From Terriglobia bacterium (GTDB lineage: Bacteria; Acidobacteriota; Vicinamibacteria; Vicinamibacterales; CAVVIG01): DNA of 64,000 bases. The notes under the pieces were generated by a model. The model made no database searches. It was not told the origin of the DNA and saw only the letters and a program-made list of their open reading frames with translations. Made by a program: the position numbers and the translations under genes. Location: positions 732 to 64,731 of the forward strand of contig JAIQFX010000051.1 in NCBI GenBank assembly GCA_020073005.1, in the 5' to 3' direction. This document shows positions 1 to 38,954 of the stretch, one piece after another; position 1 is the stretch's first letter; each line of letters begins with the position of its first letter.

Positions 1-240
1 AACCTCGGCGAAGTGCTGTTCGCGAAGAACAAGAACGACGAAGCGAGCCAGGCGTACACCAAGGCGGCGCAGATGGACCCGACATGGGGCAAGCCGCTCT
101 TCGGGCTCGCGAAGATCGCCCTGAACAAGGGCGACAAGGATGGCGCGATCAAGGCGTTCGAACGCGTCGTCGCCGCCGACCCGAGTTCGCCGGAAGCCGC
201 GCAGGCGAAAGCGGTCGTGGAGCAGTTGAAGAAGTCATGA
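1..240 (+). CDS. TPR-repeat protein, C-terminal fragment (gene begins upstream of window)
   Basis: Frame 1 is open from the window edge to TGA at 238-240. The sequence ...AYTKAAQMDPTWGKPLFGLAKIALNKGDKDGAIKAFERVVAADP... has TPR-like helix-pair spacing, similar in style to the C-termini of the downstream sulfatase/TPR paralogs. Confidence 0.6.
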   Translation, partial: NLGEVLFAKNKNDEASQAYTKAAQMDPTWGKPLFGLAKIALNKGDKDGAIKAFERVVAADPSSPEAAQAKAVVEQLKKS

Positions 241-385
241 GGTGCCGGGTGCGGCGTACCTGGTGCCATGCGGGGTGCGGGGTGCCGCGTGCGGCGTCCC
301 GTACACAGTGCGGCGCACCCGGCACTAGCCTGAGGCACCCGGCACGGCACCCAGCACTTCAGCACCAGGCACCCAGCACCCGCCG
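241..385. repeat. Inverted arrays of G-rich heptamers (GGTGCSG-like on the left, complementary CACCCRG-like on the right), intergenic
   Basis: Left part: ggtgccg ggtgcgg ... ggtgcca ... gtgcggg gtgcggg. Right part: cacccgg cac ggcaccc agcac ... accaggc acccagc accc. Together they can fold as a long imperfect hairpin between two genes. Confidence 0.7.
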
Positions 386-2593: not shown

Positions 2594-2605
2594 CGCGGAA
2601 CCACG

Positions 2606-4807
2606 GTGGGAAAAGAATCCTCCTCTCGTTTCAGTGTCCTCCGTGGTGTCGCCTTTCTTCTCGTCGCAGCTCTCGTAACGACGGTCGCAGTCTTCGTTTT
2701 CCGGAGCCGCGGCGTGCAAGCCGACCTTCGGCCGATCCCCAATCAAAACGTCCTGCTCATCACCATCGACACGCTTCGCGCCGACGCGCTCGGCAGCTAC
2801 GGCGGACAGGCGTCGACGCCCGCGCTCGATCGTCTGGCCGCCGGCGGCGTGCGGTTCGATTTCGCGCACGCGCACGCCGTCCTGACGCTGCCTTCGCATA
2901 CGAGCATCCTCACCGGCCGGTACCCGTTCCAGCACGGCGTGCGCGACAACAGCGGCTACCGCCTCGCGCCGGACGCGCGCACGGCGGCGACGATCCTGAA
3001 GCGCGCCGGCTACGCGACGGCGGCGTTCGTCGCCGCGTTCCCGCTCCACTCGCGCTTCGGGTTGAACCAAGGCTTCGACGTGTACGACGACCGCTTCGGC
3101 GAGACGCGCGCCCCGACCGAGTTCGTCATGCCCGAGCGCCCGGCGACGACGGTCGTCGCGCTCGCGCGCGAGTGGCTCGCCGCGCGGCACGATCGTGCGT
3201 TCACCTGGGTCCACGTCTTCGAGCCGCACGCGCCGTACCGCCCGCCGCCGCCCTACGACGCGCAGTACGCCGCGCGCCCGTACTACGGCGAGGTCGCGGC
3301 GGCCGACGCGGCGCTGGCGCCGCTGCTCGACGATGTCCGCCGGTCGGCGCAGCCGACAGTGGTCATCGTCACGGGCGATCACGGCGAGGCGCTCGGCGAT
3401 CACGGCGAGGACACGCACGGCATCTTCGCGTACGAGTCGACGCTCAGGATTCCGCTGATCATCGCGGAGCTCGGCGGGACAGGTCCGGCTGAAGCCGGAC
3501 GCCACGATAACAGTCGGGTCCGGCTTCAGCCGGACGACGGCGAAGTCTCGAGCGTCGCCGCGCGTCACGTCGACATCCTGCCGACGATCCTCGACGCGGT
3601 CGGCCAGGCGATTCCGTCCGATCTCCCGGGCCGCTCGCTGCTCTCCGCCGCCGAGCGCCGCTCGGCGGCGGCGCCGCGCACGTCGTACTTCGAGGCGATG
3701 TCCGGCATGCTGAACCGCGGCTGGGCGCCGCTCACGGGCGTGCTCGCCGATCGCGACAAGTACATCGACGTGCCGATCCCCGAGCGGTACGAGCTCGCGA
3801 GCGATCCCGCTGAAGCCTCGAACCTCGCGGGCCGCGCGCCGGAGCGCGATCGCACGCTCGCCGCGAGCCTTCGCGCGTTCCAATCGGAGCTGCCGGGCCA
3901 GCGGCGTCCGGAAGATCCGGACGCCGCGGCGCGGCTGCGCGCGCTGGGGTACGTGAGCGGCGACGCGCCGATCAAGCCGCGCTACACCGACGCGGACGAC
4001 CCGAAGACGCTCGTCGGCCTCGACCAGGAAATCCACCGCGGCGTCGACCTGTTCGTCGCGAAACGCTTCGCCGACGCCGTGCAGGTGTACGAGGGCGTCA
4101 TCGGCCGCAGGCCGGACATGGCCATCGCGTACCGCCATCTCGCGTTCGTGCGGTGGGAGTCGGGCAACGTCGCGGCGGCGATCGCCGTGCTCGAGCGGGC
4201 GCGCCAAGCGGGCGTCGCGCACGGCGGCATCACGTCGCAGCTGGGCGCGTATCTCGCGGAAGCCGGCCGCGCCTCCGACGCCGTCCGCCTGCTGCAGCCC
4301 GTGGCCAGCGCCGCGGCGCCCGACATCGACGCCCTCAACGCGCTCGGCATCGCCTACGCGCGGAGCGGACGGGCCGGCGAGGCGCGCGCCGTGTTCGAGC
4401 GGATGCTCGCGCTGAATGCGGAAAGCGCGATGGCGATGGAGAATCTCGGCACGCTGGATCTGGAGCGCAACGATCTGCACAGCGCCGGCAGACACTTCGC
4501 TGACGCCGTCCGCGTCGATCCGTTTTCGTCACAGGCCCAGGCCGGCATGGGCGTCGTCTCGCTGAAGACCGGCGACCGCCGATCGGCGATCGCGGCGTGG
4601 ACGAAGGCCGTCGAGCTCGACGCCACCAACTACGACGCGATGTACAACCTCGCCATGGCGCTCCTGGGCGACAAGCAGGCGGCGGCCGCGCGTCCCTATC
4701 TCGAACGATTTCTCCGCTCGGCGCCCGCCGCGTTTTACGAAAAAGACCTGCGGGAAGTCGCGGCGCTGCTCCAGCGCCTGCCTCAGGACGCCCGGGAAAA
4801 ACGCTAA
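2606..4807 (+). CDS. Sulfatase-like/TPR fusion protein, paralog 2 of 4
   Basis: 733-aa ORF starting with GTG at 2606 (exact start uncertain). Anchor FLLVAALVTTVAVFVF. Motifs LLITIDTLRADALGSYGG, LTLPSHTSILTG and VTGDHGEALGDHGEDTHG. Linker ARLRALGYVSG...DDPKT is followed by TPR-like repeats. It carries the in-frame palindromic insert at 3484-3535. Confidence 0.85.
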   Translation: MGKESSSRFSVLRGVAFLLVAALVTTVAVFVFRSRGVQADLRPIPNQNVLLITIDTLRADALGSYGGQASTPALDRLAAGGVRFDFAHAHAVLTLPSHTSILTGRYPFQHGVRDNSGYRLAPDARTAATILKRAGYATAAFVAAFPLHSRFGLNQGFDVYDDRFGETRAPTEFVMPERPATTVVALAREWLAARHDRAFTWVHVFEPHAPYRPPPPYDAQYAARPYYGEVAAADAALAPLLDDVRRSAQPTVVIVTGDHGEALGDHGEDTHGIFAYESTLRIPLIIAELGGTGPAEAGRHDNSRVRLQPDDGEVSSVAARHVDILPTILDAVGQAIPSDLPGRSLLSAAERRSAAAPRTSYFEAMSGMLNRGWAPLTGVLADRDKYIDVPIPERYELASDPAEASNLAGRAPERDRTLAASLRAFQSELPGQRRPEDPDAAARLRALGYVSGDAPIKPRYTDADDPKTLVGLDQEIHRGVDLFVAKRFADAVQVYEGVIGRRPDMAIAYRHLAFVRWESGNVAAAIAVLERARQAGVAHGGITSQLGAYLAEAGRASDAVRLLQPVASAAAPDIDALNALGIAYARSGRAGEARAVFERMLALNAESAMAMENLGTLDLERNDLHSAGRHFADAVRVDPFSSQAQAGMGVVSLKTGDRRSAIAAWTKAVELDATNYDAMYNLAMALLGDKQAAAARPYLERFLRSAPAAFYEKDLREVAALLQRLPQDAREKR
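3484..3535. repeat. Palindromic GTCCGGCTKMAGCCGGAC element, double-arm copy, inside the paralog 2 CDS
   Basis: gtccggctgaagccggacgccac (3484-3506) is the reverse complement of the 23-mer at 38202-38224 and 62582-62604. The second arm gtccggcttcagccggac lies at 3519-3535. It is translated as ...PAEAGRHDNSRVRLQPD... Confidence 0.85.
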
Positions 4808-4820
4808 GATCTGATCCTCC

Positions 4821-7277
4821 ATGACCGCAGGGCTCGTCCTCGCGCTGGCGGCAGCCGTGGCCGTCCAGGATCAGGCGGCGCCGGTCTTCAAGGCCGGCGT
4901 CGAGCTCGTCCGGCTGGACGTGCGCGTGACGGACGCGCTCGGCCGGCCGGTGCGCGATCTGCGGCCGGACGAGCTCGAGGTGATCGAAGACGGCGAGCGC
5001 CGGCCGATCGTCTTCTTCCAGCACATCGAAGAGCCGGCCGAGTCGTTCGCGGACGTCGCGCGGCACACGGTCGCGGGCGAAGTCTCGACCAATCAGGGGG
5101 CGGCGCGCGGGCATCTGTACGTGCTCGTGTTCGACCAGGAGCACATCACGCCGGGCCGCGAACAGCGCGTGCGCCAGGCGGCGCGGCGCTTCGTGCAGAC
5201 GCGGCTGCGCCCGGGCGATCGCGTCGCGCTCTACGCGCTGCCGGGACCGGGACCGCAGATCCCGTTCACGGCGGACGCGCGGCGGATCGCCGCCGAGCTG
5301 TCGAGCGCGCGCGGGATCGCGGAGCCGCAGGCGTTCGGCGCGCTCGGCAGCATGTCGCTGCCGGAGGCGTACCAGATCGTGCTCGGGAACAACGAGGTGT
5401 ATCAGCGCGTGGCGGAACGGATCCAGGGGCAGGGGACGAGCGACGCCGCGCGCCGCGCCGACGCATCGCTCGTCGGCAGAAGCGACACGCCGCTGACCAA
5501 TCCGATCAAGGAAGACGCGGAACGGATCGCCAATATCGCCGACGGCCAGACGCGGCGCGTGCTCGCGGCGCTGACCGACCTGCTGCGCGCGATGCGCGGC
5601 ATCGAGGGACGCAAGTCGGTGCTGTTCATGTCCGAGGGCTTCTACGGCGACCGCCTGTCGCGGGAGATCGAGCAGGTCGCGGCGGCGGCCGCGGAATCGT
5701 ACAGCGTCATTCACGCGTTCGATCTCAACCGCCGCGAGCCCGACATCACGCTCGACGAGCCGTCCGGCGCCGACCAGGCGAACGCGATCCACGACACGCT
5801 GAGTCCGCTCGGCTCGCTGGCCGCCGAGACGGGCGGCTCGCTCGTCATCGACGCCAGCATGCGCGCCGGCGAAGCCTTCGACGCGATGGCCGATCAGTCG
5901 CAGGACTACTACCTCGTGGGCTTCACGCCGCGCGCGGAGGCGCTGAAGGATCGCGGCGCGTACCGGCGCGTGGCCGTGCGCGTCCGCCGCGGCGGGGCGC
6001 AGGTCAGCACGCGCACCGGGTTCGCGCTGAATGAAACCGCGGCGCGCCTGGATCGGCGGCAGGCGATCGATCGCGCCATGACGTCGCCGTTCCCGCTCCA
6101 GGGCCTGCCGGTGCAGTACACGACCTACGTGCTGCGCGGCAGCGCGGCGGGCCTGCAGCGCGTGATTCTCAGTCTGGCCGCGGAGCTGCCGCTCGCCTCG
6201 CGCGATGGCGCGCCAACCGGCGTCGCCGACGCCGCGGACGTGGCCTTTGTCGTGCGCGCGGCCGTTGACGGCCGCGTGGCCGCCAGCGGTCACGACGCGA
6301 TCGCCCTGCCCGAACGGCGGGCGCCGGCCAGCACGACGGGGACCGGCACGTTCCGCGCGCAGTTCGAGCTGCCGCCCGGCGACTATCTGATGCGCGCGAT
6401 CGTGCGCGAGCCGGGCGGGCTCGTCGGCAGCGCCGACCGCCGCTTCACGGTGCGCGCGCTGAACGGACCGACGCTCGAAAGCGGCGACCTCGTCCTGAGC
6501 CCGACGCGCGGCGAGCTGCCCGTGCGGCCGACGGCGTACATCGGCGACGGCCTGAGCGGCGTGCTGGAGCTCTACGCGCGGACCATTGATCAATTGCGCG
6601 ACGCGCGCGTCGTCGTCGATCTCATTCCGGTCGGCGAGGACGCGGCGATCGTCTCCGGCTCGGCCGATCTGCAGCCGATCCGCGCGATCGCGGGGGGCGC
6701 CGCGCGCGAAGCTCGCGTGGCGCTGCCGCTTCCGTCGGTCGCGCCGGGAACGTACGTCGCCCGGGCGCGCGTGTTGTCGGGGTTGGACACCGTGTCGCAG
6801 GTCGTTCGCGACATCGAGATTCGGCAAGGCCAGCGTCCGGCGTCTGTCGATGAAGATCCGCCGGCGGCGTTCGATCCGCAGGCCGTGGTGACCGGCGCGG
6901 TGGCGCGTGACTACGCGGCCGCGGCGACGACGGGCGCGGAGGGCCGGCGCGGACTCGAGCGCCTCGGCGCGCGCGACTTCCCGGCGGCGATTACAGCGTT
7001 TCAGGCGGCGCTGGCTGCGGACGAGAACAACGGCGCCGCGGCGTTTCTCCTGGGCTGGGCGTTTCACGGCGCCGGCGACGATCGACAGGCGATCAGCGCG
7101 TGGCGTCGCGCCGCCTTCGTCGATCCCACGCTCGTCTCCGCGCACCTCGCGCTGGCCGACACCTACCTCCGCCTCGCGCAGCCCGCGCTCGCCGTCCAGG
7201 CGCTGCGCGCGGGTCTCGTCGCGCTGCCGCAGTCGGTCGAGCTTCTCGATCGATTGGGTCGGATCGAACGACGATGA
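4821..7277 (+). CDS. VWA-type protein of the 'VWFA-related acidobacterial domain' kind with a C-terminal TPR-like tail
   Basis: 818-aa ORF with a signal-like N-terminus. Lead-in FKAGVELVRLDVRVTDALGRPVRDLRPDELEVIEDGERRPI, then a VWA-like region ending YYLVGFTP...YRRVAVRVRRGGAQVSTRTGF. The tail is TPR-like. The stop overlaps the next start (ATGA at 7274-7277). Confidence 0.75.
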   Translation: MTAGLVLALAAAVAVQDQAAPVFKAGVELVRLDVRVTDALGRPVRDLRPDELEVIEDGERRPIVFFQHIEEPAESFADVARHTVAGEVSTNQGAARGHLYVLVFDQEHITPGREQRVRQAARRFVQTRLRPGDRVALYALPGPGPQIPFTADARRIAAELSSARGIAEPQAFGALGSMSLPEAYQIVLGNNEVYQRVAERIQGQGTSDAARRADASLVGRSDTPLTNPIKEDAERIANIADGQTRRVLAALTDLLRAMRGIEGRKSVLFMSEGFYGDRLSREIEQVAAAAAESYSVIHAFDLNRREPDITLDEPSGADQANAIHDTLSPLGSLAAETGGSLVIDASMRAGEAFDAMADQSQDYYLVGFTPRAEALKDRGAYRRVAVRVRRGGAQVSTRTGFALNETAARLDRRQAIDRAMTSPFPLQGLPVQYTTYVLRGSAAGLQRVILSLAAELPLASRDGAPTGVADAADVAFVVRAAVDGRVAASGHDAIALPERRAPASTTGTGTFRAQFELPPGDYLMRAIVREPGGLVGSADRRFTVRALNGPTLESGDLVLSPTRGELPVRPTAYIGDGLSGVLELYARTIDQLRDARVVVDLIPVGEDAAIVSGSADLQPIRAIAGGAAREARVALPLPSVAPGTYVARARVLSGLDTVSQVVRDIEIRQGQRPASVDEDPPAAFDPQAVVTGAVARDYAAAATTGAEGRRGLERLGARDFPAAITAFQAALAADENNGAAAFLLGWAFHGAGDDRQAISAWRRAAFVDPTLVSAHLALADTYLRLAQPALAVQALRAGLVALPQSVELLDRLGRIERR

Positions 7278-9204
7278 AAACGAAGAAAGGGACCTTTCTC
7301 TCCGTGTCCTCCGTGTCCTCTGTGGTGATTTCTTTCTTGGTCGGAGCGCTCGCTTTAGCGCAGTCGCCGCCGCCAAACGTCCTCCTCATCACCATCGACA
7401 CGGTGCGGGCCGATCATCTCGGCGCGTACGGTTACACGAAGGGCGCAACACCGGCGATCGATAGGCTCGCGCGCGAGGGCGTCCGCTTCGCCGATGCCAC
7501 GTCGCAGGCGCCGTTGACCGGACCGGCGCACGCCGCGATCCTCACCGGGCAGTATCCGGCGCGGCTCGGCGTCCGCGACAACGCCAGCACGCCGATTCCC
7601 GCCGGCACGTCAACGCTCGCGACGATGTTCAAGGGGCGCGGGTACAGGACGGGCGGCTTCGTCGGCGCGTTCATCCTGGGCCCGGAGTACGGCTTCGCGC
7701 AGGGCTTCGACACGTTCGACGCGACGTTCGCGCGATTCAACGCCGGGATGAAGCTGCAGGCGCAGCGCCGCGGCGGCGAGGTGACCGACGCCGCGCTCAA
7801 GTGGATACGGGGAGACAGCCACCAGTTCTTCGCGTGGGTGCACCTCTACGACGCGCACGCGCCGTACGACGCGCCCGCGCCCTTCCGCGCGCGCTTCGCG
7901 GCGGCGCCGTACGACGGCGAGGTCGCGTACGTCGACAGCTGCATCGCGAAGATCGTCGCGGCCCTCGAACAATCGGGCCAGCTCGAGCGCACGCTGATCG
8001 CCGTCGTCGCGGATCACGGCGAGGGACTGGGCGATCACGGCGAAGCCGAGCACGGTCTGTTCCTCTACGAATCCGTGCTGCACGTGCCGTGGATCATGCG
8101 GCTGCCCGGCCACGACGCCGCGGGATCGGTCGTCAAGACGCAGGTGCGCGCGATCGACGTGCTGCCCACGCTGGCGGCAATCGCGGGCGTGACGCCGCCG
8201 AAGACGGACGGCTCTATCCGAAGTGGCACTTCGGCTGGAGCGAGCTGAAGTCGGTCCGCGTCGGCGACTGGAAGTACATCGACGCGCCGAAGCCGGAGCT
8301 GTACGACATGCGCGCGGACGCCGGTGAAGCGCGCAACGCCATCGACGCGCGCGGCCCGCTCGCCGGCGGTCTGTCCGCGGAGCTCGGGAAAATCCAGACG
8401 GGATTCGGCGCCGCCGCCACCGTCACGGATGCGCCGCAGCCCGATCCGGAAACGCTGGCGCGGCTGCGCAGCCTCGGCTACGTCGGCATCGCGTCGCCGT
8501 CGCCGGGCGTGCGCGGTCCCGATCCGAAGGACATGGTCCCGACGCTCGAGACCTTCAAGACCGGAATCAGCCGCGCGATGGACGCGCTCGGGCGCGGCAA
8601 CGCGGACGCCGCGATCGCGCAGCTGAAGACGCTCGTCGCGATGAACGATCGTTCGTACGAGCTGCACCTGTTTCTCGGCGACGCGTACGCGGCCAAGCGC
8701 CAGTACGACACGGCGCTCGGCGAATACGCCGCCGCGCGGATGCTGAACGCGCACAGCAGCGCGCCGGCCATCTCCGAGGCGCGCGTCTATCTGGGGCAGG
8801 GCAATCTCGCGCGCGCGCTGCAGCAGATCGACGCGGCCGAGCGCCTGGATCCGACGAGCAGCGAGGTGCCGCTCGTCCGCGGCGAGATTCTGGAGAAGCA
8901 GGGCCGCGGTCCGGACGCGCTCGCGCAGTACGAGATTGCCGTCCGCACGAACGGCTCGGACGCGCAGGCCCGCGTCAGCCTCGCCAGCCTGGCGCTGCAG
9001 CTGCGTCAGTACGATCTGGCCCGGCCGCAATTCGAGAAGCTCGTGCAGATGGGCTATCGTCCGTCGCGGATGCACTTCGGGCTCGCGCAGATCGCCGAGG
9101 CGCAGGGCGACGTGAAGAAAGCGATCGCCGAGTATCGTCTGGCCCTGAAGCTCGAACCGTCGCTCAAGGAAGCCAGCGCGGCGTTGTCACGGCTCAGTCA
9201 ATAG
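7274..9204 (+). pseudogene. Sulfatase-like/TPR fusion, paralog 3 of 4, broken by an internal deletion plus frameshift near 8210
   Basis: Frame A (7274-8248) reads MKTKKG...LLITIDTVRADHLGAYGY...LTGPAHAAILTG...[17 protein letters not shown]...GVTPPKTDG and then hits nonsense and a stop. The frame offset by 2 nt (-1 frame) resumes at about 8212 with LYPKWHFGWSEL...ARLRSLGYVG...TPR and runs to 9204. About 22 residues conserved in the paralogs (RSL...YSE) are missing at the junction. Confidence 0.8.
7299..7327. repeat. Single arm of the CTCCGTGTC-type repeat, encoding part of the signal peptide (LSVSSVSSVV)
   Basis: cctccgtgtcctctgtggt at 7308-7326 is the exact reverse complement of accacagaggacacggagg at 48651-48669. 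Confidence 0.8.
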
Positions 9205-9212
9205 GAGGCACC

Positions 9213-12054: not shown

Positions 12055-12062
12055 CAAAAAAA

Positions 12063-12089
12063 GACCCCGGAGGTCAGCCCTCCGGGGTC
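12063..12089. terminator. Hairpin between convergent genes, with a U-tract on the minus-strand side
   Basis: gaccccggagg-tcagc-cctccggggtc has an 11-bp perfect stem. The A-run at 12055-12062 becomes a U-run after the hairpin for the minus-strand receptor gene. Confidence 0.7.
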
Positions 12090-12107
12090 GGTCGAACCGC
12101 AGGCAGG

Positions 12108-12130
12108 GTCCGGCTAAAGCCGGACGCCAC
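12108..12130. repeat. Intergenic copy of the GTGGCGTCCGGCTTCAGCCGGAC palindromic element (1 mismatch)
   Basis: gtccggctaaagccggacgccac is the reverse complement of the 23-mer family with a single loop change. Confidence 0.8.
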
Positions 12131-12136
12131 GGAACA

Positions 12137-15085
12137 TCAGAAGAAGAAGCGCACGCCGAGCCGCGCAATGCGCGGCTGCATGATCTCCTGCACGGTGTTG
12201 AACGCCGTCCCCGTGCGCGCGTCGTACTGGTTGCCCAGGACGGTCGCGTTGTTGGCGATGTTGAAGATGTCGAAGTCCAGCGCGAGATTCGTCTTCTGGA
12301 ACTTGAACATCTTCTCGACGCGCGCATCGAGCGAGGTCACCGCGTCGAGACGAAACTGATCGACGCTGGTCGTCAGCAGCACGCTCTTGCTCGAGACGAC
12401 CGGGTCGCCCGGGTTCACCTTGCTGCGGAAGTACGGCTCGCCGTACCCCTGGCGGAACAGGAGGTTGGCGCCGACGTTGATCCCCCACGGTCCCTCATAG
12501 AGCCCGTTGGCGGTGAACTGGTACTTGGGCGGCAACAGGTAGATGCTGCTCTTGCCGCTGCCGGAGGACTTCACGACGACCGGCCCGCCGTCGATGTTGG
12601 GTCCGGCGCTCTGGAAGGACTGGTACTGTCCCGAGGCGTTGGGCGTCGGCGTCAGGTCGAGCCGTGCGTCCGCCGCGCTGAAGTATTCGTTCCAGCTCGT
12701 CGTCGCAAACCCCGCGCGCGCCATCCAGTGATTCGACATGCGCTTGGTCGCGGTCGCTTCGAATCCGAGGTAGCGCTGGTGGTAGTCCGGCCGGTTCACG
12801 GCCGTGTAGCCGGGCAGCGCCGACGTCGCTCTGTAGATCGGAACGTTCGGCGCGCCGGTCACGGGAACGTTGAGCGCCGTGCCGTTCTGCACGTAGCTGG
12901 CCGGCGTCACGCCGTTGCGCGGGTTCCACAGAAAGTTGTTCATGTAGCGGTACGTCATCGTCGCGCTGACGCCGAAGTTCGCCATCAGCTCGTGGTCGAC
13001 GCCGCCCATGATTTCCTGCGTGCGCGGCGCTGTGATGTCGCTGATCTTGTTGTTCGACGTGAACACGCCCGGGTGCGACAGATCGACGACGTTGGACCCC
13101 TGCACGCCCTGGCTGAACAGGACTTCGTTGAGATCGGCGTAGCCGTTGCACCCGTTCGATTTTGCCTGGCCCTGCGCGAGAGTACACGGCGCGCCGGTCG
13201 ACGTCCGATCGACGGCGTTGTAGTACACGTAGGTGTACGGCTGGATGCCGGAGACGAATCCGGCGGCGTTACCCGGCAGCTGCGACGCGAACATCGCGTA
13301 GCTCACCCGGGCGATCGTCTTTCGCGAATCGTCGAGCGCATACGTGATACCGACGCGCGGCGTCACGTTGTTGAAGTCGTAGGCGTTGTTGACCGCCGTC
13401 GCCGTCGCCGCCGGCAGCAGCGGGAACCCGGCCACCGCGGGCGCGGTGGACGGCAGGATGGATGACGTCTGGTGGTCGAACCGCACGCCGGCCATCAGGG
13501 TCAACCGGTTCATCGAGATCGTGTCCGTGACGAAGCCCTGCGTGTACTTGCCTTCGCTGCTGACCACGTAGTCCTGCTGCGCCTGGGCGATCAGGTCCGG
13601 GTAGCCGTTCCAGAACGTCATGATCCGGTTGGGGCCCGTCACCGTCGACAGCGAATCGACCGGCGTCTTGCGGTACGAGAAGCCAAACTTCACTTCGTGC
13701 TTGCCCTTGAAGTAGCTCGCGTCTCCGCCCGCGAAGTACTGCGGGCGCGTCGTGCTGTAGAAGTAGTACGAGTTGTGCCAGACACCGCTATCGTCCTTGT
13801 AGAACGGCGTGTCCACACCGCCCCGCGGCGACAACTGGAACCCGCCGCTGATGTACGCGTATCGCGCCGACGCGAACAGGTTCTGCCCCACCGTGAAGTT
13901 GCCCTCGCCCTTGTAGTACTTGGTTGGGCCGGTCTGATCCCACGTCGTTTCGTCCGGGTGGGTCGCGCTCGCGCCGCGCCCGTTCTTCACCTTGTTGCCC
14001 TCGAAGAACGTGAAGTTGCCGCGGACGCTGGGATTCACCTGCGCGTCGCCTTTGAACGCGTAGTTCTTCAGGACCGTTTCATCCAGCGTTCCAATCAGCG
14101 TCCGGATGCGCGGGTTGGTCTCACCGATGGTGCCCCACACCCAGACCTTGTCTTTCAGGAGCGGGCCGCCGAGGTCGAAACCGTAGTCCTTGTATATATC
14201 CGTCCGGTTTCCGCAGTGCTGCGTGTACCCGCTGTCAATGCAGGGCTGATAGGCGCCGCCGATCGTCTTGGCGAGCGTCGGATCCATGTTGTTGCCCTGC
14301 AGGTTCTCGTTCTCGAAGTAGTAGCGGGCATCGCCGTGGATCTGGTTGCTGCCCTTCTTGAGAATCAGGTTCAGCTGCACGCCGGGCGTCGGGTTCTGCG
14401 CGTCCGCGCCGCCGGTCGTGATGGCCATTTCCTGGAACATGTCGAAGTCGTAGTAGGTCGGCGTCGACCCGGTCGCGCCCATGTCGGTGACCGGCACGCC
14501 GTCGATGTTCCACGTGTTGTCGGTGCCGAACGAGCCCTTGCCGATGTAGTTCGACTGCTGGCCCGACTCCGAGCCGCCGACGTTGACACGGTCGACGTAG
14601 ATCGTCGGCACCGTCTGCATGACGACCCACGGATCGCGCGCGCTCGGGATGTTCTGCAGTTCCTCGAGCGTCACGTTCGTCGTTGTCGTCTCGCGCCGGA
14701 TATCGATGATGGGCGTCGCCGCCGTCACGTTCACGGTTTCCGCCGTGCCCGCGACGCCGAGTTTGATGGCGACGGGCGTCGCAGAGCCGCTGGCCACCGC
14801 GACTTCAGGGTTGTTGTAGGGATTGAATCCCGAGAGACTGGCTTTGATCGCGTAAGTCCCGACCGGCAGATTCAGGAAATGCACCTGGCCCTGCGCGTCG
14901 GACACCTGCGTCTGATTGACGGGTCCGGTGAGGTCCACCGAGACGCCCGGCAGCCGGCCACCGGTCGTGTCTTCGATCGTGACGTCCACGCGCCCGGTGA
15001 AGATCTGCGCCGAAGCGGTCGACACCACGCCGAGCACCATCACGAGTGCCGCGAACCACGCGACGAGTTTACGGTTCCGTTTCAT
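12137..15085 (-). CDS. TonB-dependent-receptor-like outer-membrane barrel with an N-terminal carboxypeptidase-regulatory-like domain
   Basis: 982 aa from the ATG at 15085, preceded by GGAGGAG. Signal peptide MKRNRKLVAWFAALVMVLGVVSTASAQ. CarboxypepD_reg-like region GRVDV...GGRLPGVSVDL...AQGQVHFLNLPVGTYAI. The body is rich in Y/G/N/T beta strands and ends in a terminal ...LGVRFFF. The upstream M at 15124 was rejected. Confidence 0.8.
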   Translation of the reverse strand: MKRNRKLVAWFAALVMVLGVVSTASAQIFTGRVDVTIEDTTGGRLPGVSVDLTGPVNQTQVSDAQGQVHFLNLPVGTYAIKASLSGFNPYNNPEVAVASGSATPVAIKLGVAGTAETVNVTAATPIIDIRRETTTTNVTLEELQNIPSARDPWVVMQTVPTIYVDRVNVGGSESGQQSNYIGKGSFGTDNTWNIDGVPVTDMGATGSTPTYYDFDMFQEMAITTGGADAQNPTPGVQLNLILKKGSNQIHGDARYYFENENLQGNNMDPTLAKTIGGAYQPCIDSGYTQHCGNRTDIYKDYGFDLGGPLLKDKVWVWGTIGETNPRIRTLIGTLDETVLKNYAFKGDAQVNPSVRGNFTFFEGNKVKNGRGASATHPDETTWDQTGPTKYYKGEGNFTVGQNLFASARYAYISGGFQLSPRGGVDTPFYKDDSGVWHNSYYFYSTTRPQYFAGGDASYFKGKHEVKFGFSYRKTPVDSLSTVTGPNRIMTFWNGYPDLIAQAQQDYVVSSEGKYTQGFVTDTISMNRLTLMAGVRFDHQTSSILPSTAPAVAGFPLLPAATATAVNNAYDFNNVTPRVGITYALDDSRKTIARVSYAMFASQLPGNAAGFVSGIQPYTYVYYNAVDRTSTGAPCTLAQGQAKSNGCNGYADLNEVLFSQGVQGSNVVDLSHPGVFTSNNKISDITAPRTQEIMGGVDHELMANFGVSATMTYRYMNNFLWNPRNGVTPASYVQNGTALNVPVTGAPNVPIYRATSALPGYTAVNRPDYHQRYLGFEATATKRMSNHWMARAGFATTSWNEYFSAADARLDLTPTPNASGQYQSFQSAGPNIDGGPVVVKSSGSGKSSIYLLPPKYQFTANGLYEGPWGINVGANLLFRQGYGEPYFRSKVNPGDPVVSSKSVLLTTSVDQFRLDAVTSLDARVEKMFKFQKTNLALDFDIFNIANNATVLGNQYDARTGTAFNTVQEIMQPRIARLGVRFFF

Positions 15086-15334
15086 GTCTTCGGCTCCTCC
15101 TCTAAGAAGCTGATGACCACGCATCCTGTCGGATGCCTACGCGCGTCCTGCGTAAGACGAACGTAAATGCCGTGCGAGCAATCGGTTGACCGCTCGGCGA
15201 CCGTTCATGATACAGCGATCTGTATCGGGCGAAACATTGGCTTGCGTGATTTCGGCGACTGTCCGGCCGATGTCCGGAAATACGGTCGTCCACGGCGCAC
15301 CTGTCCGGAAACGAACACCCCTCGGGGCTCTATA

Positions 15335-16207
15335 ATGCGCGGTGTCGTGATGCCGGTCGTTCTGGCGCTGGCCGCCGCAGTCGCCACACTCCCCGCAATG
15401 GCTCGAGGGGCCCAATCCCCCGCGCCGCCTTCACAGACTGGCGCAAGCCGTCTCGTCCTTGCCGCCGCGACCGACCCGCGCAACCGCCCGCTCGTGGACC
15501 TCGGGCCCGATGATTTCGTGATTGAGGAAGGCAAAGACGAGCGCGAGGTGCTCTCCGTCCATCCGGCGGACTATCCGATCGTCGTGTTGCTCGGCACCGG
15601 CGTCGAAGCGCACGCGGACTTCGCCACGATTCAGACAGCCGTGCTGCACTTCATCGAGCGGCTCGGCGACGAGCGGCCGATCGCGCTCGTCTCGTTCGGC
15701 GGCGCGCCGCGGCTGATCGCGTCCTTCGAGGACGACCGGAAGACCGTGCTCGCGCGCCTGCAAGCCCTGTCCATCGACGCCGCGCCCGGCCGCGAGGTCC
15801 TGCGCGGCGCCGGCCTGGCGGCCGAGACGCTGCGCGCCACCCAGACGCTGTTTTCCGCCATCGTCGTCGTCTCCGGCACGCCGATCGACGCGGCTCGTGG
15901 AACGGACGAAGATACGCTCGGACCCATTATCGAGAGCGGCGCCATCCTGCATGTCGTCGCCAACTTCGGGAACGCCGCCGCCGCGCCGGGGACGCTGCGC
16001 GGACTCGTCGAGCAGACGCACGGCGTCTACACGCCGGTCTACACGGCCGCGTCGTTTCAGCCGGCGCTCGATCGACTGGCGGATCGGCTGTCGACCGAGC
16101 TCATCGTCGAATACCTGGTGCCGGCCGGGTCGAAGGCGAGCGACGTGCGCGTCGGCGTCCGGATTCCGGGCGCGCGGGTCCGCGGCCTCGGCGTGGCGCC
16201 CCGATAG
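15335..16207 (+). CDS. Small VWA-like (TIGR03436-style) exported protein with a degenerate MIDAS site
   Basis: About 290 aa. Signal peptide MRGVVMPVVLALAAAVATLPAMARGAQ (an alternative ATG lies at 15350). Motifs PLVDLGPDDFVIEEGKDEREV and IVVLLGTGVEAH, with tail LIVEYLVP...VRVGVRIPGARVRG. The upstream part of ORF 15167 was rejected. Confidence 0.65.
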   Translation: MRGVVMPVVLALAAAVATLPAMARGAQSPAPPSQTGASRLVLAAATDPRNRPLVDLGPDDFVIEEGKDEREVLSVHPADYPIVVLLGTGVEAHADFATIQTAVLHFIERLGDERPIALVSFGGAPRLIASFEDDRKTVLARLQALSIDAAPGREVLRGAGLAAETLRATQTLFSAIVVVSGTPIDAARGTDEDTLGPIIESGAILHVVANFGNAAAAPGTLRGLVEQTHGVYTPVYTAASFQPALDRLADRLSTELIVEYLVPAGSKASDVRVGVRIPGARVRGLGVAPR

Positions 16208-16228
16208 ACCCGGCAGATCCGATACGCG

Positions 16229-18301
16229 ATGAAAATCAGGCTCGCCTTTGCGGTCCTCGCTCTGACGGCAGTCGCCTGGTTTGTCTGGGAGCGCAGCCGG
16301 CCGTCGGTGCGTCCGGGCGCGTGCGCAGGCTGCAACGTCCTGCTCATCACGATCGACACGCTGCGGCTCGATCGCGTCGGCGCGTTCGGCGGCCCGGCCG
16401 GTCTCACGCCGCATCTCGATCGCCTCGCGGCGGAGGGCCTGCGGCTCACGCGGACCTACAGCTCCGCGCCGCTCACGCTGCCCTCTCACACGTCGATCAT
16501 GACTGCCGTGTCGCCGCCGGTGCATGGCGTGCGGACCAACGGCCTGTTCCGCCTCGGCGCCGCGCTTCCGACGCTCGCGACCGTCCTGAAGGCAGCCGGC
16601 TATCGCACGGGCGCGTTCGTCGGCGCGTTCGTGCTGGACGCGCGGTTCGGCCTGAACCGCGGATTCGACGTGTACGACGACCGCTACGGCGAAAAACACA
16701 CGGGCGATCCGACGGAAGGCGCCGAGCGCCGCGCGGAAGAGGTGATCAAGCCGGCGGCGGCATGGATCCTGGACGGCGGCCACCCGTCTTCAGCCACCAG
16801 CCACCAGCCACCAGCCACCAATCCTTGGTTCGCGTGGGTCCACCTCTACGATCCGCACGAGCCCTACCGCGCGCCCGAGCCGTACGCCTCGCAACACGAG
16901 CCGTACGACGCCGAGGTGGCGTACGCGGACGCGATGGTCGGCCGCTTGCTCGACGACCTGCGGTCGGCCGGACAACTCGATCGAACGCTCGTCGTGGTCG
17001 CGTCGGATCACGGCGAAAGCCTCGGCGAGCACGGCGAGCGCACGCACGGCGTGTTTACCTACGACGCGACGATGCGCGTGCCGTGGATCGTGTGGGCGGG
17101 GTCGCGTCTCCCGAGCGCGTCGACCGACGCGCTCGTCCGGCTGATCGACGTCGCCCCGACGACGCTCGACCTCGTCGGCGTGGCGGCGCCGCCTTCGTTC
17201 GAGGGCCGCTCGGCGCTCCCGGAGGCGGGCTGCCGGACCTGGTTCGCGCAGACTCCACCGGCGCGCACGGCGTACATCGAAGCGATGGACGCGAACCTGA
17301 CACGGAACTGGGCGCCCCTGACGGGCATCGTGTCGGGGAGCGCGAAGCTCATCGAGCTGCCGATCCCGGAGCTCTACGATCTCTCGTCGGATCCGAAGGA
17401 AGCGACGAACCTCTTCACGCGCGACGCCGAGCGCGCGCGCACGCTGAGTGCGCTGCTTCGCGAGTCCACGTCCGCATTTCTCTCGCGCGGTTCAGCCGCC
17501 GAGAAAACCACGCTGGGCGGCGAGGCGCGCCAGCGGCTGCAGGCGCTCGGTTACGTGGCGTCGAGCGCCGAGCCCGGCAATCGCGTCTTCACGGACGCCG
17601 ACGATCCGAAGACGCTCATCGGGCCCGCCAACGATCTCCAGCGCGCGGTCATCGCGTTCAACACGGGATCGAGGGCGCCGGCGATGGACGCCGTCCGCGC
17701 GATCGTCCGGGCGCACCCGGGCTTCACGACGGCCCATGGGATGCTCGCGTCGATGCAGCGCGAGAGCGGCGACCTGCGCGGCGCGATTGCCACGCTCGAG
17801 GACGTCCTGCGCCGCGGCATCGCGGATCAGAGCGTGATGATCGTGCTCGCGGGGTATCTGCAGGAGGCGGGCGACGCCGCCAAGTCGGTCGCGCTGCTGG
17901 AGGCGGTCGTCGCCGCGCACCCGGACTACGCTGAGGCGTACAACTCGCTCGGCGTCGCGTACATGCGCCTGGGCCGCCACGATCAGGCCCGCGCGGCGCT
18001 GCGCAAGGTGCTCGACCTCGATCCGACGTCGGCGAAGGCGTACGAGAATCTGGGCGCCGATGAATTGTCCGTGGGCGATCTGGCGGCCGGCGTCGACGAT
18101 CTGAAGCGGGCGATCGATCTCGATCCGCTGCTCTACGATGCGCTGTACAACCTGGCGCTGGCGCTGCACGATCTCGGACGGCGCGATGAGGCGCGGCCGT
18201 ATCTCGAGCGCTTCGTGCGCGAGGCGCCGCAGCCGCGCTACGCGCGCGACATCGCGAAGCTGCAGAGTGTTTTTGAAAAGAGCGGGACCGGAAAAAAATA
18301 G
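16229..18301 (+). CDS. Sulfatase-like/TPR fusion protein, paralog 4 of 4
   Basis: 690-aa ORF with anchor LAFAVLALTAVAWFVW. Motifs VLLITIDTLRLDRVGAFGG, LTLPSHTSIMT and VASDHGESLGEHGERTHG. Linker [11 protein letters not shown]...DDPKT is followed by TPR repeats. It contains the heptamer run at 16791-16818. Confidence 0.85.
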   Translation: MKIRLAFAVLALTAVAWFVWERSRPSVRPGACAGCNVLLITIDTLRLDRVGAFGGPAGLTPHLDRLAAEGLRLTRTYSSAPLTLPSHTSIMTAVSPPVHGVRTNGLFRLGAALPTLATVLKAAGYRTGAFVGAFVLDARFGLNRGFDVYDDRYGEKHTGDPTEGAERRAEEVIKPAAAWILDGGHPSSATSHQPPATNPWFAWVHLYDPHEPYRAPEPYASQHEPYDAEVAYADAMVGRLLDDLRSAGQLDRTLVVVASDHGESLGEHGERTHGVFTYDATMRVPWIVWAGSRLPSASTDALVRLIDVAPTTLDLVGVAAPPSFEGRSALPEAGCRTWFAQTPPARTAYIEAMDANLTRNWAPLTGIVSGSAKLIELPIPELYDLSSDPKEATNLFTRDAERARTLSALLRESTSAFLSRGSAAEKTTLGGEARQRLQALGYVASSAEPGNRVFTDADDPKTLIGPANDLQRAVIAFNTGSRAPAMDAVRAIVRAHPGFTTAHGMLASMQRESGDLRGAIATLEDVLRRGIADQSVMIVLAGYLQEAGDAAKSVALLEAVVAAHPDYAEAYNSLGVAYMRLGRHDQARAALRKVLDLDPTSAKAYENLGADELSVGDLAAGVDDLKRAIDLDPLLYDALYNLALALHDLGRRDEARPYLERFVREAPQPRYARDIAKLQSVFEKSGTGKK
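16791..16818. repeat. Perfect tandem heptamer (CAGCCAC) x4 inside the CDS
   Basis: cagccac cagccac cagccac cagccac is translated ...SATSHQPPATN... within a roughly 12-residue stretch absent from the other three paralogs. Confidence 0.9.
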
Positions 18302-18324
18302 GCCGGGTGGTTGCCCACCCGGCC
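18301..18324 (-). terminator. Intrinsic-terminator-like hairpin serving the minus-strand receptor gene
   Basis: ggccgggtgg-ttgc-ccacccggcc has a 10-bp stem. The A-run at 18292-18298 gives UAUUUUUUU after the stem on the minus strand. It begins at the stop codon of the plus-strand gene. Confidence 0.7.
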
Positions 18325-18336
18325 CATCACAAATCG

Positions 18337-18386
18337 TCCGGCTGAAGCCTGCGCGCTACGGCTGTAGCGCGAGCCTTTCAGGCGAG
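18337..18386. repeat. Degenerate palindromic element or nested hairpins between convergent genes
   Basis: gtccggctgaagcc is related to the GTCCGGCTGAAGCCGGAC family. It is followed by the hairpin cgcgctac-ggct-gtagcgcg (18352-18371) and gcctttcaggc. Confidence 0.55.
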
Positions 18387-18390
18387 CGTC

Positions 18391-21360
18391 CTACCAGATC
18401 AAACGGAAGCCCACGCGGGCCGTCCGCGGTCCGAGGATCCCGGTCGGCTGCAGATACGTCGCGCCGGTCGCCTGCACGATCGTCTCGCCGGCGTACGCGT
18501 TCGCCAGGTTGAAGCCGTCGAGGAACAGGCGGACCTTGGCCGCGTTGCCCAGGTTCACGGTCTTCTCGACGCGCACGTCGATGACCGAGATTTTGTCCTG
18601 GGTGTTCGCGTTGTAGTCCGTCGCGTACACCGTGGTGTTCGCGAGGCTTCCGCCGCGCGCCGCGCTGAACGTGCAGGCGCACGACGCGGGCGCCGACACC
18701 GACAGCGTCCGGGCGAAGTTCGCGCCGCCCTGGAACCGGTACACGGGGCTGATGCTGATGCCCCACGGCGCCAGGTACTGCGCGTTGAGCTTGAAGCTCA
18801 CGGTGCGGTAGTCGTAGTCGAACGGGCCGTTCGGCGTGTTCGGGAACGTCAACGGGTAATCGTGCTGCCACGTGTACCCGAAGCCCGCGCCGAGCGAGTA
18901 GTTATGGCTCTGGCGCTTGTTGACGGAGAACTCCAGCGTCTTGTACTTGCCGTCCTGCGCCTGATTCATCACGACGTTGTTCGTCGGATACGCGCAGGTC
19001 GGCGTCACCGTCGTCGTGGTCGCCGTGCAGCCCGCGATCAACGCGCTCGGGATCCCGCGGAACGTCAGGGTCTGATCGTCAGAGGTGCCCTGAATGTTGT
19101 CCGGCCCCTTGTCGATCACCGTGAACGGCACCGTGTACGCCGACGCCGGCCGCAGCGGCTGATACGTGCTGGTCTGGTTGGTGACCGTATACAGCACGAA
19201 CCCGACGCGCGCGCCGACGCCTTCGGTGATCTGACGCTCGACGTAAACCGTCGCCTGCTGCGAGTACGGCTGCTGCAGGTTCGGATCCACCGAGATCGTG
19301 CCGGCCAGCGCGCTGGCGGTCTGCGCGCCTTCCTCGCCGACCTGGTACGTCTTGTCGCCGGGCTTGCAGGTCGCGCAGACCTTGGCGTCGGTCCACGCGT
19401 AGGTGACGCTCTTCACGGTCTGGTTCGGGTTCGCGCTCGCCGCGACGCCGACACCAGGGTTGAAGCGATACAGCCCGTAGTTCAGCTTCAGCACGGTCTT
19501 GCCGTCGCCCATGAGGTCGTACGCCATGCCGAGGCGCGGCACGAACGAGTTCCACTTCACGTAGTGCTGCTCAGGGAAGCTCTGCGCCGCGATGGCGACG
19601 CCGGTCGGGAACGTGTACGCCAGCTGGTTCTGCGTGGGCGTCCACACGTCGTAGCTGTCGAAGCGCATGCCGAGGTTCATCGTCGCGCGCTTGTACGTCC
19701 ACTGATCGGTGATGAAGGCGTCGTACGTGCTCACCTTGTCGACGCTCAGCAGGTTGCCGTTCGGCCCGTCGCCGAGGCTGCCCGCGTGCGTCGCCGTCGG
19801 CGCGTACATCACGACGCTGGTCGGGATGCCGTTGGAGCCGATGGTTTCGCGGATGTTGCCCGAGGCCACCTGCTGATAGCCGTACCAGCCGGTTTCGAGG
19901 AGCATCTCGCCGCCGACCTTGAAGTTGTGCGAGCCGCCCCAGCCGTCCTTGAAGTACGTGACGGACCCGGTCGCCTGACGACGCTGCCGGTCGGTCTGCT
20001 CGATCTGATCGGCGCCCGTCAGCAGCGACTGGCTGTTGTCGAACTTCTCGTGCTCGGTCGTCGAGCTGTTGGCGAGCAGCGGGAAGTAGTAGCCGAACAC
20101 GCCGTAGCGCGCTTCGACGTACATGTTCTTGTTGACGGTGCCGTTCCACTCACCCTTGTAGATCCAGCTGCCGGAGATCTGCTTGAGCGTTCCATCGAGC
20201 GCGGTGTAGTTGAGCGAGCTCGACGGCAGACGATTCGGCTGAACCTTCTGGCCCCACTGGTAGTACCCGATCAGCTTGTTGTTCTGGTTGACCTGGTACG
20301 TGGTCTTGCCGGACGGATTCCACAGGCGCGTGTCGAACAGCGTGCCGGCGATCGGTCCGATGAAGTTCGGCTGGCCCACCGAGGTCTTCTGGTCGCGATA
20401 CGAGAAGTACCACCAGACCTTGTCCTTCTTGATCGGGCCGCCGACGTTGATGTTCGAGTCGCGGTACTTCGACGTCTCGTTGCTGTGATCGCGCACGCCG
20501 CCGGAGTTGGTGACCGGGTCGTACGCGAACTTGGCCGGGATGTTCGAGGCGATGTTGTCCGAGATCATCGAGTTGGTCTCGAAGTCCTGGTAGATCTCGC
20601 CCTGGAACTTGTTGCCGCCCGACTTGCCGAGCATCTGGCTCTGCACGCCCGGCGTCGGCATCTCGGCGCCCTGCGCGATCGTGCCGAGGAAGACTTCCTC
20701 GAACGACCCGTAGTCGACGTAGAAGCCCGCGGCGCTCGTGCCCTCGGTCGTGTTGATGCCCTCGACGAGGACGCGGTTCTGGCCGCTGTAGCCGTACGCG
20801 GTGTAGCCCGTCTGCGTGCCGGCGCGGTTGCCGCCGACGTCGATGCGGCCCATGGACACCGACGGCGTCACCGCCAGCAGCGACCACAGATCGCGCGAGT
20901 TCGGAATTTCCTGCAGCGCCTCGAGCTTGAAGTTCTGCTGCACGCGCGTGGATGACGTGTCGATGACGGGCGACGCGCCCGTGACCGTCACGGTCTCCTG
21001 CAGGGACGCCACGGCCAGCTCGACGTTGACCGTCGCCGTGAAGCCCATCGCAATCTGAATGCCCTCACGCTTCAGCGTGTTGAAGCCGGGCAGCTCGTAG
21101 GTCACCGTGTAGCTGCCTGGAGGCAGCGCCGGGAAACGGTAAAGACCGCCCGTATCGGTCACCGACGTCTGGGAGCCCATCATGGACGGGCTGGTGGCGG
21201 TCACCGTGACGCCGGGCAGGACGCCGCCGCTGCTGTCGGCGACCTTGCCGTTGATGGAGCCGGTGGTGCTTGCGCCACCACCCTGCGCGAACGCGTGGGT
21301 CGCCGCGAGCAGACTGACTGCCAGCATCGCGATGACCAGACGGAACCCTCGACCTCTCAT
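18391..21360 (-). CDS. TonB-dependent-receptor-like outer-membrane barrel with an N-terminal carboxypeptidase-regulatory-like domain (paralog of 12137-15085)
   Basis: 989 aa from the ATG at 21360, preceded by AGGAGGGGG. Signal peptide MRGRGFRLVIAMLAVSLLAATHAFAQ. Region GKVADSSGGVLPGVTVTATS...GGLYRFPALPPGSYTV. C-terminus ...ARVGFRLIW. The upstream 60 codons of ORF 21540 were rejected. Confidence 0.8.
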   Translation of the reverse strand: MRGRGFRLVIAMLAVSLLAATHAFAQGGGASTTGSINGKVADSSGGVLPGVTVTATSPSMMGSQTSVTDTGGLYRFPALPPGSYTVTYELPGFNTLKREGIQIAMGFTATVNVELAVASLQETVTVTGASPVIDTSSTRVQQNFKLEALQEIPNSRDLWSLLAVTPSVSMGRIDVGGNRAGTQTGYTAYGYSGQNRVLVEGINTTEGTSAAGFYVDYGSFEEVFLGTIAQGAEMPTPGVQSQMLGKSGGNKFQGEIYQDFETNSMISDNIASNIPAKFAYDPVTNSGGVRDHSNETSKYRDSNINVGGPIKKDKVWWYFSYRDQKTSVGQPNFIGPIAGTLFDTRLWNPSGKTTYQVNQNNKLIGYYQWGQKVQPNRLPSSSLNYTALDGTLKQISGSWIYKGEWNGTVNKNMYVEARYGVFGYYFPLLANSSTTEHEKFDNSQSLLTGADQIEQTDRQRRQATGSVTYFKDGWGGSHNFKVGGEMLLETGWYGYQQVASGNIRETIGSNGIPTSVVMYAPTATHAGSLGDGPNGNLLSVDKVSTYDAFITDQWTYKRATMNLGMRFDSYDVWTPTQNQLAYTFPTGVAIAAQSFPEQHYVKWNSFVPRLGMAYDLMGDGKTVLKLNYGLYRFNPGVGVAASANPNQTVKSVTYAWTDAKVCATCKPGDKTYQVGEEGAQTASALAGTISVDPNLQQPYSQQATVYVERQITEGVGARVGFVLYTVTNQTSTYQPLRPASAYTVPFTVIDKGPDNIQGTSDDQTLTFRGIPSALIAGCTATTTTVTPTCAYPTNNVVMNQAQDGKYKTLEFSVNKRQSHNYSLGAGFGYTWQHDYPLTFPNTPNGPFDYDYRTVSFKLNAQYLAPWGISISPVYRFQGGANFARTLSVSAPASCACTFSAARGGSLANTTVYATDYNANTQDKISVIDVRVEKTVNLGNAAKVRLFLDGFNLANAYAGETIVQATGATYLQPTGILGPRTARVGFRLIW

Positions 21361-38952: not shown

Positions 38953-38954
38953 TG

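Follow-up and report, generated by a model that had tools for sequence, protein, structure and literature searches.

A conserved Acidobacteriota cell-envelope gene cluster that links Oar-class outer-membrane barrels to predicted phosphoesterases with tetratricopeptide repeat tails, probably for uptake and processing

The present study analyzes a gene island at the beginning of a 64,000-nucleotide stretch of DNA (the window) from contig JAIQFX010000051.1 of a soil-dwelling Terriglobia bacterium assigned to the order Vicinamibacterales of the Acidobacteriota. A first-pass annotation had noted that three protein architectures recur in the island, namely sulfatase-like enzymes with tetratricopeptide repeat (TPR) tails, von Willebrand factor A (VWA) proteins and large outer-membrane barrels, and Pfam and NCBIfam confirm this with corrections to one enzyme (S3), one VWA protein (V3) and the class of the enzymes. 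Comparison with related loci indicates that the module is real and that the island exemplifies a cell-envelope gene cluster conserved in, and specific to, the Acidobacteriota. The core of the cluster is the enzyme-barrel pair, one barrel with one to four paralogous enzymes, and the VWA proteins, a small protein (P) and a CarboxypepD_reg-TPR protein are lineage-enriched accessories. Neither the cluster nor TIGR03436 was found described in full-text literature searches, which covered TIGR03436 and combinations of Acidobacteria, TonB-dependent, sulfatase, TPR and Oar, in agreement with the earlier remark that this gene combination had no described function.

The gene map was drawn from the open reading frame listing, third-position G+C content and translation, in DNA of 64–72% G+C. 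As noted previously, the window opens inside a TPR gene, of which the last 79 codons are present (1–240, plus strand); its counterparts in loci L004 (8544–9917), L082 (3793–4743), L016 and L003, with C-termini 63–74% identical, carry PF13620 plus TPR, and this CarboxypepD_reg-TPR gene is the first of operon A. On the same strand follow S1 (386–2593), a PF00884-fold enzyme of the alkaline phosphatase superfamily with a Thr nucleophile and C-terminal TPR, orthologues of which are 46–75% identical; S2 (2606–4807), a paralogous enzyme-TPR fusion with a GTG start; V1 (4821–7277), with a TIGR03436 VWA-like domain, an uncharacterised middle, a TPR tail and orthologues at 44–73% identity; S3 (7274–9204), an enzyme-TPR gene; P (9213–9980); and V2 (9988–12054), in which a disordered linker joins a TIGR03436 VWA-like domain to a TPR tail. 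By comparison with other loci, this unit A is a conserved operon of 6–7 genes that includes the CarboxypepD_reg-TPR protein and P. Convergent to it lies B1 (12137–15085, minus strand), which encodes an Oar/SusC-class barrel resembling a TonB-dependent transporter (TBDT), composed of a CarboxypepD_reg extension, a sub-threshold plug and the barrel. It is followed by V3 (15335–16207, plus strand), a small divergent VWA-like protein, by S4 (16229–18301, plus strand), an enzyme-TPR fusion 42% identical to S2, and by a second Oar-class barrel, B2 (18391–21360, minus strand). The tight plus-strand packing reported earlier was found again, with an ATGA overlap of V1 and S3 at 7274–7277 and other gaps of 7–21 nucleotides. 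ATP synthase, nuo and haem biosynthesis genes lie downstream, and the island is for this reason placed in the core chromosome.

The four enzymes had been described as sulfatase-like/TPR fusions. A fusion of PF00884 with TPR is present in S1, S2 and S4 (127–165 bits in Pfam, and 127–167 bits across S1–S4), S3 is disrupted, and none of the four is a sulfatase. The best sequence matches of the catalytic domain are to sulfatases and phosphonate monoester hydrolases (PDB 5g2v, 7oz8, 2vqr and 2w8s, E 1e-52 to 1e-40), and alignment to solved sulfatases places Thr at the position of the formylglycine Cys and His at that of the signature Arg, giving T-x-P-x-H as against the C-x-P-x-R of GALNS and ARSA. 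Among 142 aligned enzymes, drawn from 80 loci plus the window, the Thr nucleophile position is conserved in 142/142 and the His of T-x-P-x-H in 141–142 of 142, and D45, T85, H89, H195, H200, D249, H250, E252, H257 and H262 (S1 numbering) are invariant. A true formylglycine sulfatase was rejected because T-x-P-x-H replaces C/S-x-P-x-R in every family member, which makes formylglycine chemistry impossible, and the best score against the NCBIfam arylsulfatase and choline-sulfatase equivalogs (167.8 bits) falls far below the cutoff of 481. It was also considered that some paralogs could be pseudo-enzymes acting as binding proteins, and this too was rejected, every candidate catalytic residue being invariant and none of the proteins looking catalytically dead. 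Matches to PF01663, the NPP family, reach 55–60 bits (cutoff 23) with coverage mostly of N-terminal residues 70–225, and the motifs I-D-T-L-R-A-D and T-x-P-x-H-x-S-I-x-T-G resemble the NPP motifs D-G-x-R-x-D and T-F-P-N-H. A further motif, DHGE-x-LG-x-HG-x3-HG, matches NCBIfam models of the phosphoethanolamine transferases EptA and MCR. We read the S-type enzymes as active Thr-nucleophile phospho(di)esterases, a prediction from their active-site residues, with a His/Asp-rich active site that probably binds metal. In current annotation they are misnamed, and "sulfatase-like" or "choline-sulfatase" would be better replaced by a Thr-nucleophile phosphoesterase class with T-x-P-x-H and LGY..DPK as its signatures. 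The latter belongs to the linker R-L-[RQ]-[AS]-L-G-Y-V followed by DPK, which had been noticed in the four window enzymes and does occur in all of them; family-wide it was found in 37/39 and 80/94 proteins, and it behaves as a family signature.

Hydropathy analysis gives each enzyme one N-terminal hydrophobic segment of 16–24 residues, either a signal peptide or a membrane anchor, and no multi-pass membrane domain; the lack of such a domain speaks for a hydrolase and against a lipid-donor transferase. With rule-based lipobox and hydropathy assignments, a lipobox was present in 66/100 enzymes from outside Vicinamibacterales, including 25/35 of those that follow a barrel gene, and in 1/42 from Vicinamibacterales. 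Residue +2 after the lipobox Cys in the former (L023–L078) is most often G, R or S, as in CGRR and CRRG, and this basic pattern is unlike the lipoprotein export signal of Bacteroidota, which is acidic. No SusD or RagB Pfam match was obtained in any enzyme scanned. In S3 third-position G+C and translation place a change of coding frame at about 8210–8215, a frame-2 part covering 7274–8248 and a frame-1 part about 8213–9204, and approximately 27 columns of the paralog alignment are absent at the switch. The L004 orthologue, which is 72% identical, keeps 23 residues (ESVVPFIRGAAPRDPSPSYAETF) that are absent from the window copy. S3 is thus disrupted by a frame-breaking deletion of about 70 nucleotides and is likely a pseudogene or else the product of an assembly error. 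A different fusion, of PF01663 Phosphodiest with TPR, stands beside Oar-type barrels at L002 (431–2423) and L082 (18377–21891), fragmented in these assemblies by long-read frameshifts, and extends the theme of superfamily enzyme plus TPR beyond the PF00884-type family.

The two paralogous CarboxypepD_reg-type barrels had been recognized correctly, and both B1 and B2 consist in Pfam of CarboxypepD_reg plus OMP_b-brl_4 (PF13620 at 44 and 66 bits and PF25183 at 78 and 108 bits, respectively). On domain content, their architecture is the one seen in TBDTs belonging to the Oar subclass. An AlphaFold2 model of B1 matches TBDTs with E 1e-24 to 1e-16, including siderophore receptors, and the top structural matches (E 1e-24 to 1e-20) are FusA, YddB and, from the levan and dextran utilisomes, their SusC subunits. 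After the N-terminal domain, ETVNVTA and ETVTVTG were spotted by eye and are candidate TonB boxes. B2 has an orthologue in L002 at the same position, next to ATP synthase genes.

Of three proteins assigned earlier to TIGR03436, V1 (170.8 bits) and V2 (184.0 bits) exceed the cutoff of 81.25 and carry TPR tails, and V3, with 26.5 bits, is not a member. V3 reaches 26.9 bits against VWA_2 (cutoff 27), has no BLASTP match to V1 or V2 at E <= 1e-3, and does match a small VWA protein encoded at 33645–34541; its orthologues adjoin B1 in 14 metagenome contigs. The D-x-S-x-S of the metal-ion-dependent adhesion site (MIDAS) is absent from V1 (FDQEHI) and V2 (FDDAHL), and across 37 V2 orthologues the first Asp alone is invariant at this position. 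The AlphaFold2 model of V2 (mean predicted local distance difference test score, pLDDT, 78) shows a beta-sandwich and an alpha/beta domain that has a helical insert, followed by a disordered linker and TPR, and a fold search with it was dominated by the TPR tail and gave no information on the VWA part. The VWA proteins may serve as adaptors. For P, a single PD40 match (PF07676, 24.6 bits) agrees with its earlier description as a small PD40-like protein, its N-terminal hydrophobic segment is only weak, and a search of PDB sequences gave no significant relative. At least 9 loci keep P in its place between V1 and V2, and the L082 counterpart is 49% identical. Elsewhere in the window, downstream of the nuo operon, there are tandem VWA genes at 33645–34541 and about 34680–35533, the second of which has the highest TIGR03436 score of the window (225 bits) and is linked to no enzyme or barrel gene.

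Conservation of the neighbourhood, which the first-pass annotation had proposed as a check on its grouping, was examined in one genome per GTDB species by a scan with the enzyme alignment, yielding 79 loci, about 21 of them Vicinamibacterales-like and the other 58 mostly from Thermoanaerobaculia with 32–42% identity to the enzymes. Profiles built from the window proteins were iterated on these loci and every match was mapped. The order in Vicinamibacterales is CarboxypepD_reg-TPR, S1, S2 (sometimes swapped), V1, (S3), P, V2 and then the convergent B1, and L082, where an independent gene call with Pfam labels was available, has the same order with V1 absent. The other classes usually have barrel, enzyme, (enzyme) on a single strand (23/58 loci, with too little upstream sequence in 18/58 for it to be seen); a TIGR03436 gene follows the enzymes in some of these loci (167–189 bits), and a VWA gene is facultative there, being found in about 10/58. 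Over the 79 loci, the density of barrel genes is 1.3 per 10 kb up to a distance of 1.5 kb from an enzyme gene and 0.21 per 10 kb beyond it. Under randomisation within each locus, adjacency lies above chance both for barrels, 36/48 of which are at most 600 bp from an enzyme gene (12.5 expected; 0/200,000 simulations reached 36), and for VWA genes (21/36 within the same distance, 7.25 expected). No further family turned up in 10 or more loci on all-against-all clustering, and the moderately recurrent neighbours were only housekeeping genes (CtaA, CtaB, DUF420, NamZ/beta-lactamase and an epimerase).

A scan anchored on the barrel, covering 80 metagenome contigs with B1 orthologues at 48–86% identity, gave a similar picture. 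Downstream of B1, a convergent enzyme, VWA or P gene lies within 2.6 kb in 35/44 assessable flanks; upstream, a divergent enzyme or small-VWA gene lies within 700 bp in 27/52; and at least one partner gene was found on 49 of the 67 assessable contigs. The match lists of B1 and V2 have 18 contig sizes in common. Because V3-type genes are often divergent from B1, the tie of the V3-S4 pair to B1 is at least as strong as that to B2. The three architectures are taken to be functionally linked since their adjacency outlasts class-level divergence despite changes of order, orientation and flanking genes, and linkage kept through such changes of order and strand argues for selection. In close relatives (L130:13058–14995 and L001:859–2796), whose B1 is 86–87% identical to that of the window, a gene for a 645-residue membrane protein with PMT_2 (a GT-C glycosyltransferase) plus TPR lies between B1 and V2; a gap of matching size is seen in about 11/44 assessable metagenome contigs, and the gene is absent from the window, where the gap (12055–12136) has only 82 nucleotides and a copy of a palindromic repeat.

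It had been suggested that the island holds two copies of one functional unit, and that a comparison of the paralogs could separate recent duplication from ancient subfunctionalisation. Identities are 32–42% among S1–S4, 26% between V1 and V2 and 28% between B1 and B2, and each paralog has its own orthologues at 45–75% identity across Vicinamibacterales. Recent tandem duplication of one unit was rejected on these grounds, and the pattern points to ancient subfunctionalisation. With paralogs 26–42% identical and V3-S4 tied also to B1, "two copies" is too simple.

The cluster is probably a new kind of uptake-and-processing system. More specifically, an Oar/SusC-class TBDT and tethered Thr-nucleophile phosphoesterases may take up and process phosphoester substrates, a reading that we prefer and hold tentatively, at somewhat less than an even chance. 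The barrel would import an organic substrate containing phosphoesters in a TonB-dependent manner and the enzymes would hydrolyse its phospho(di)ester bonds, at the outer membrane where they are lipoproteins, as in Thermoanaerobaculia, or, where their N-termini are plain signal or anchor sequences as in the window, in the periplasm; the TPR and VWA modules would keep the enzymes at the transporter. Domain content, the chemistry class of the active site and conserved linkage are the firm parts of this reading. The direction of transport, the nature of the substrate and a physical complex are what we infer.

Several observations count against phosphoester uptake. The Plug family PF07715 scores 22.4 bits in B1, below its cutoff of 23.9, and has no match in B2, although many B1 orthologues do have a precomputed match; in the B1 model (overall pLDDT 72, predicted template modelling score 0.71) the plug region has a pLDDT below 50. 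No Pho-type, phosphate-transport or regulatory genes are found in the cluster or among its neighbours, and a regulatory motif common to three promoter regions was rejected, only a local pair of TGTCCGGAAA upstream of V3 being seen. The window enzymes are not lipoproteins and the barrels stand in separate, convergent transcription units. The PMT_2-TPR gene of the close relatives fits envelope modification better than nutrition. Finally, the barrel- and enzyme-anchored statistics given above ignore shared ancestry.

Three other explanations were weighed. One is that there is no functional unit and that three hugely expanded Acidobacteriota families lie close together by chance or inherited synteny. 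The families are indeed very large (at least 8000 enzyme-TPR matches and 2321 barrel matches), the 225-bit TIGR03436 gene at about 34.7–35.5 kb is unlinked to either partner, and the barrels of the window are transcribed separately; yet adjacency is far above random placement even inside the same 20-kb loci, it is kept through rearrangement and a change of flanking genes between classes, and a search begun at the barrel finds the linkage again, so that this explanation, already disfavoured, is now very improbable. A unit being accepted, the enzymes could transfer groups to, or trim, a polymer, lipid or protein of the envelope, with chemistry like that of EptA, BcsG or LtaS, the TPR and VWA parts as scaffold, and the barrel as target, anchor or conduit. 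This would suit the phosphoethanolamine-transferase match of the DHGE-x-LG-x-HG-x3-HG motif, the GT-C (PMT_2)-TPR glycosyltransferase between B1 and V2 in near relatives, and the position of the cluster amid housekeeping genes and apart from catabolic or regulatory ones, and TPR scaffolds are typical of systems for exopolysaccharide export and modification. We nevertheless consider it unlikely: known lipid-donor transferases of the same fold have a multi-pass membrane domain that these enzymes lack, the partner barrel has a TBDT fold and not that of a polysaccharide porin, and the glycosyltransferase gene is restricted to about a quarter (11/44) of assessable contigs.

The remaining explanation reverses the direction of traffic, so that the TPR-tailed enzymes, the VWA proteins or both would leave the cell through the Oar-class barrels and act on extracellular substrates. 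In Myxococcus xanthus, Oar (MXAN_1450) is required for export of the protease PopC (PMC6434023), and B1 and B2 share with it the subclass architecture of PF13620 extension plus barrel; moreover, the cluster enzymes, one N-terminal hydrophobic segment aside, are soluble, and their genes are tightly linked to those of the barrels. Oar-PopC is, however, the sole case of protein export by a TBDT described in that paper (PMC6434023), and PopC is not known to use Sec whereas the N-termini of the cluster proteins are of Sec type. Outside Vicinamibacterales, two thirds of the relatives are lipoproteins, expected to travel by the Lol route and not through a barrel lumen, and the top structural matches of B1 are importers. 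Secretion by this means is accordingly judged quite unlikely.

Among known systems, uptake of phosphoester substrates has a close parallel in the SusCD-like TBDT-lipoprotein pairs of Bacteroidota, including PusCD, recently described for organophosphorus (bioRxiv 10.64898/2026.09.03.749221). The likeness consists of a TonB-dependent barrel with a CarboxypepD_reg N-terminal extension, of several paralogous hydrolase genes per locus, of SusC subunits among the top structural matches and, in the Thermoanaerobaculia relatives, of a TPR lipoprotein gene as the next gene on the same strand, resembling susC-susD. The cluster differs in that its partner has no SusD-family domain and instead has canonical 34-residue TPRs fused to an enzyme, in that the window enzymes lack a lipobox and the barrels are convergent, in that its VWA proteins have no counterpart, and in that its complex is putative. 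Oar, which has a PF13620 extension, a plug with TonB box and a 22-strand barrel in about 1000 residues (PMC6434023), resembles the barrels in domain architecture, their own plug and TonB box being putative, but is linked to ExbBD/TonB genes and to protease export, while the cluster barrels neighbour phosphoesterase-TPR and VWA genes with no Ton genes nearby. For the enzymes, type I sulfatases and phosphonate monoester hydrolases are the best overall match of the catalytic domain and are set apart by C/S-x-P-x-R in place of T-x-P-x-H and by the NCBIfam equivalog cutoffs. NPP (PF01663; PDB 2gsn) and EptA/MCR-1 share the Thr nucleophile, EptA/MCR also the DHGE..LG..HG...HG motif, but the cluster enzymes have no multi-pass membrane domain, score higher in overall fold against sulfatases, and have a C-terminal TPR and LGY..DPK linker specific to their family. 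The Bat (BatA-E) aerotolerance operon of Bacteroides and Leptospira likewise has exported VWA plus TPR proteins, whereas the VWA domains of the cluster are TIGR03436 and lack MIDAS. Bat operons are not known to have barrel or enzyme partners. A Bat operon was rejected here, with no MoxR ATPase or DUF58 among the scanned island proteins and the main other open reading frames of the window.

We regard the cluster as a new variant of the transporter-centred envelope locus. Vicinamibacteria and Thermoanaerobaculia abound in soil and sediment but seldom come into culture, and no role has been assigned to the large families of Oar-type barrels and TIGR03436 proteins that they encode; the cluster offers a concrete, testable unit in which a particular barrel is paired with particular enzymes. 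It may represent a second origin of transporter-lipoprotein pairing, so far described mainly in Bacteroidota, and if the substrate is organic phosphorus it would bear on soil phosphorus cycling. A bolder and doubtful proposal is that the TPR tail is a shared docking tag that recruits a changing set of envelope proteins to Oar-class barrels, perhaps through the CarboxypepD_reg extension, the set comprising Thr-nucleophile phosphoesterases, NPP-type phosphodiesterases, the GT-C glycosyltransferase, VWA adaptors and the CarboxypepD_reg-TPR protein. The cluster would in that case be an independently arisen Acidobacteriota counterpart of the SusCD/PusCD "utilisome", with the enzyme fused to the lid-like partner, and a major route, so far unrecognised, by which organophosphorus is acquired in soil.

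Each barrel gene had been thought to share a hairpin terminator with the operon convergent to it. There are two strong hairpins in each convergent gap: between V2 and B1, a GC-rich hairpin with T-run at 12063–12089 (minus strand) and a palindromic repeat copy at 12107–12131; between S4 and B2, a hairpin with T-run at 18297–18328 (minus strand) and another at about 18336–18385. In each gap the hairpin with the T-run stands beside the plus-strand stop and has its T-run on the minus strand, and is therefore a canonical, intrinsic terminator for the barrel gene only. The divergent upstream region of B1 and V3 contains two exact TGTCCGGAAA direct repeats (15271–15280 and 15302–15311) 31 nucleotides apart; none occurs upstream of S1 or B2, and the 4 matches in the whole window (2.4 expected) are not above chance. 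An Rfam scan of the window gave no matches. The intergenic region upstream of S1 (238–386) forms a long GC-rich imperfect hairpin with GGTGCC/GGCACC-type repeats (-85.7 kcal/mol, z = -2.1).

The short palindromic repeat GGTCCGGCTGAAGCCGGACGCCACG has 16 core matches across the window (1.05 expected), with sites at 3474–3540, 12107–12131, 18336–18349, 38145–38224, 55118–55150 and 62581–62611. Some belong to intergenic hairpins and others to coding sequence. An in-frame insertion of 13–17 residues in S2, which 11/11 orthologues lack, is made of two inverted copies (3474–3540), and hemC, a peptidase S9 gene and a penicillin amidase gene contain further ones, behaviour that resembles that of Rickettsia palindromic elements. 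A tandem array with a 7-nucleotide period (ACGACTA/ACGACCA) occupies 38836–38954 between hemC and the hemD-cobA gene, and a dispersed T-rich repeat of TTTTCAG-like units lies between or beside genes at 46088–46142, 53655–53709, 57856–57960 and 59984–60024.

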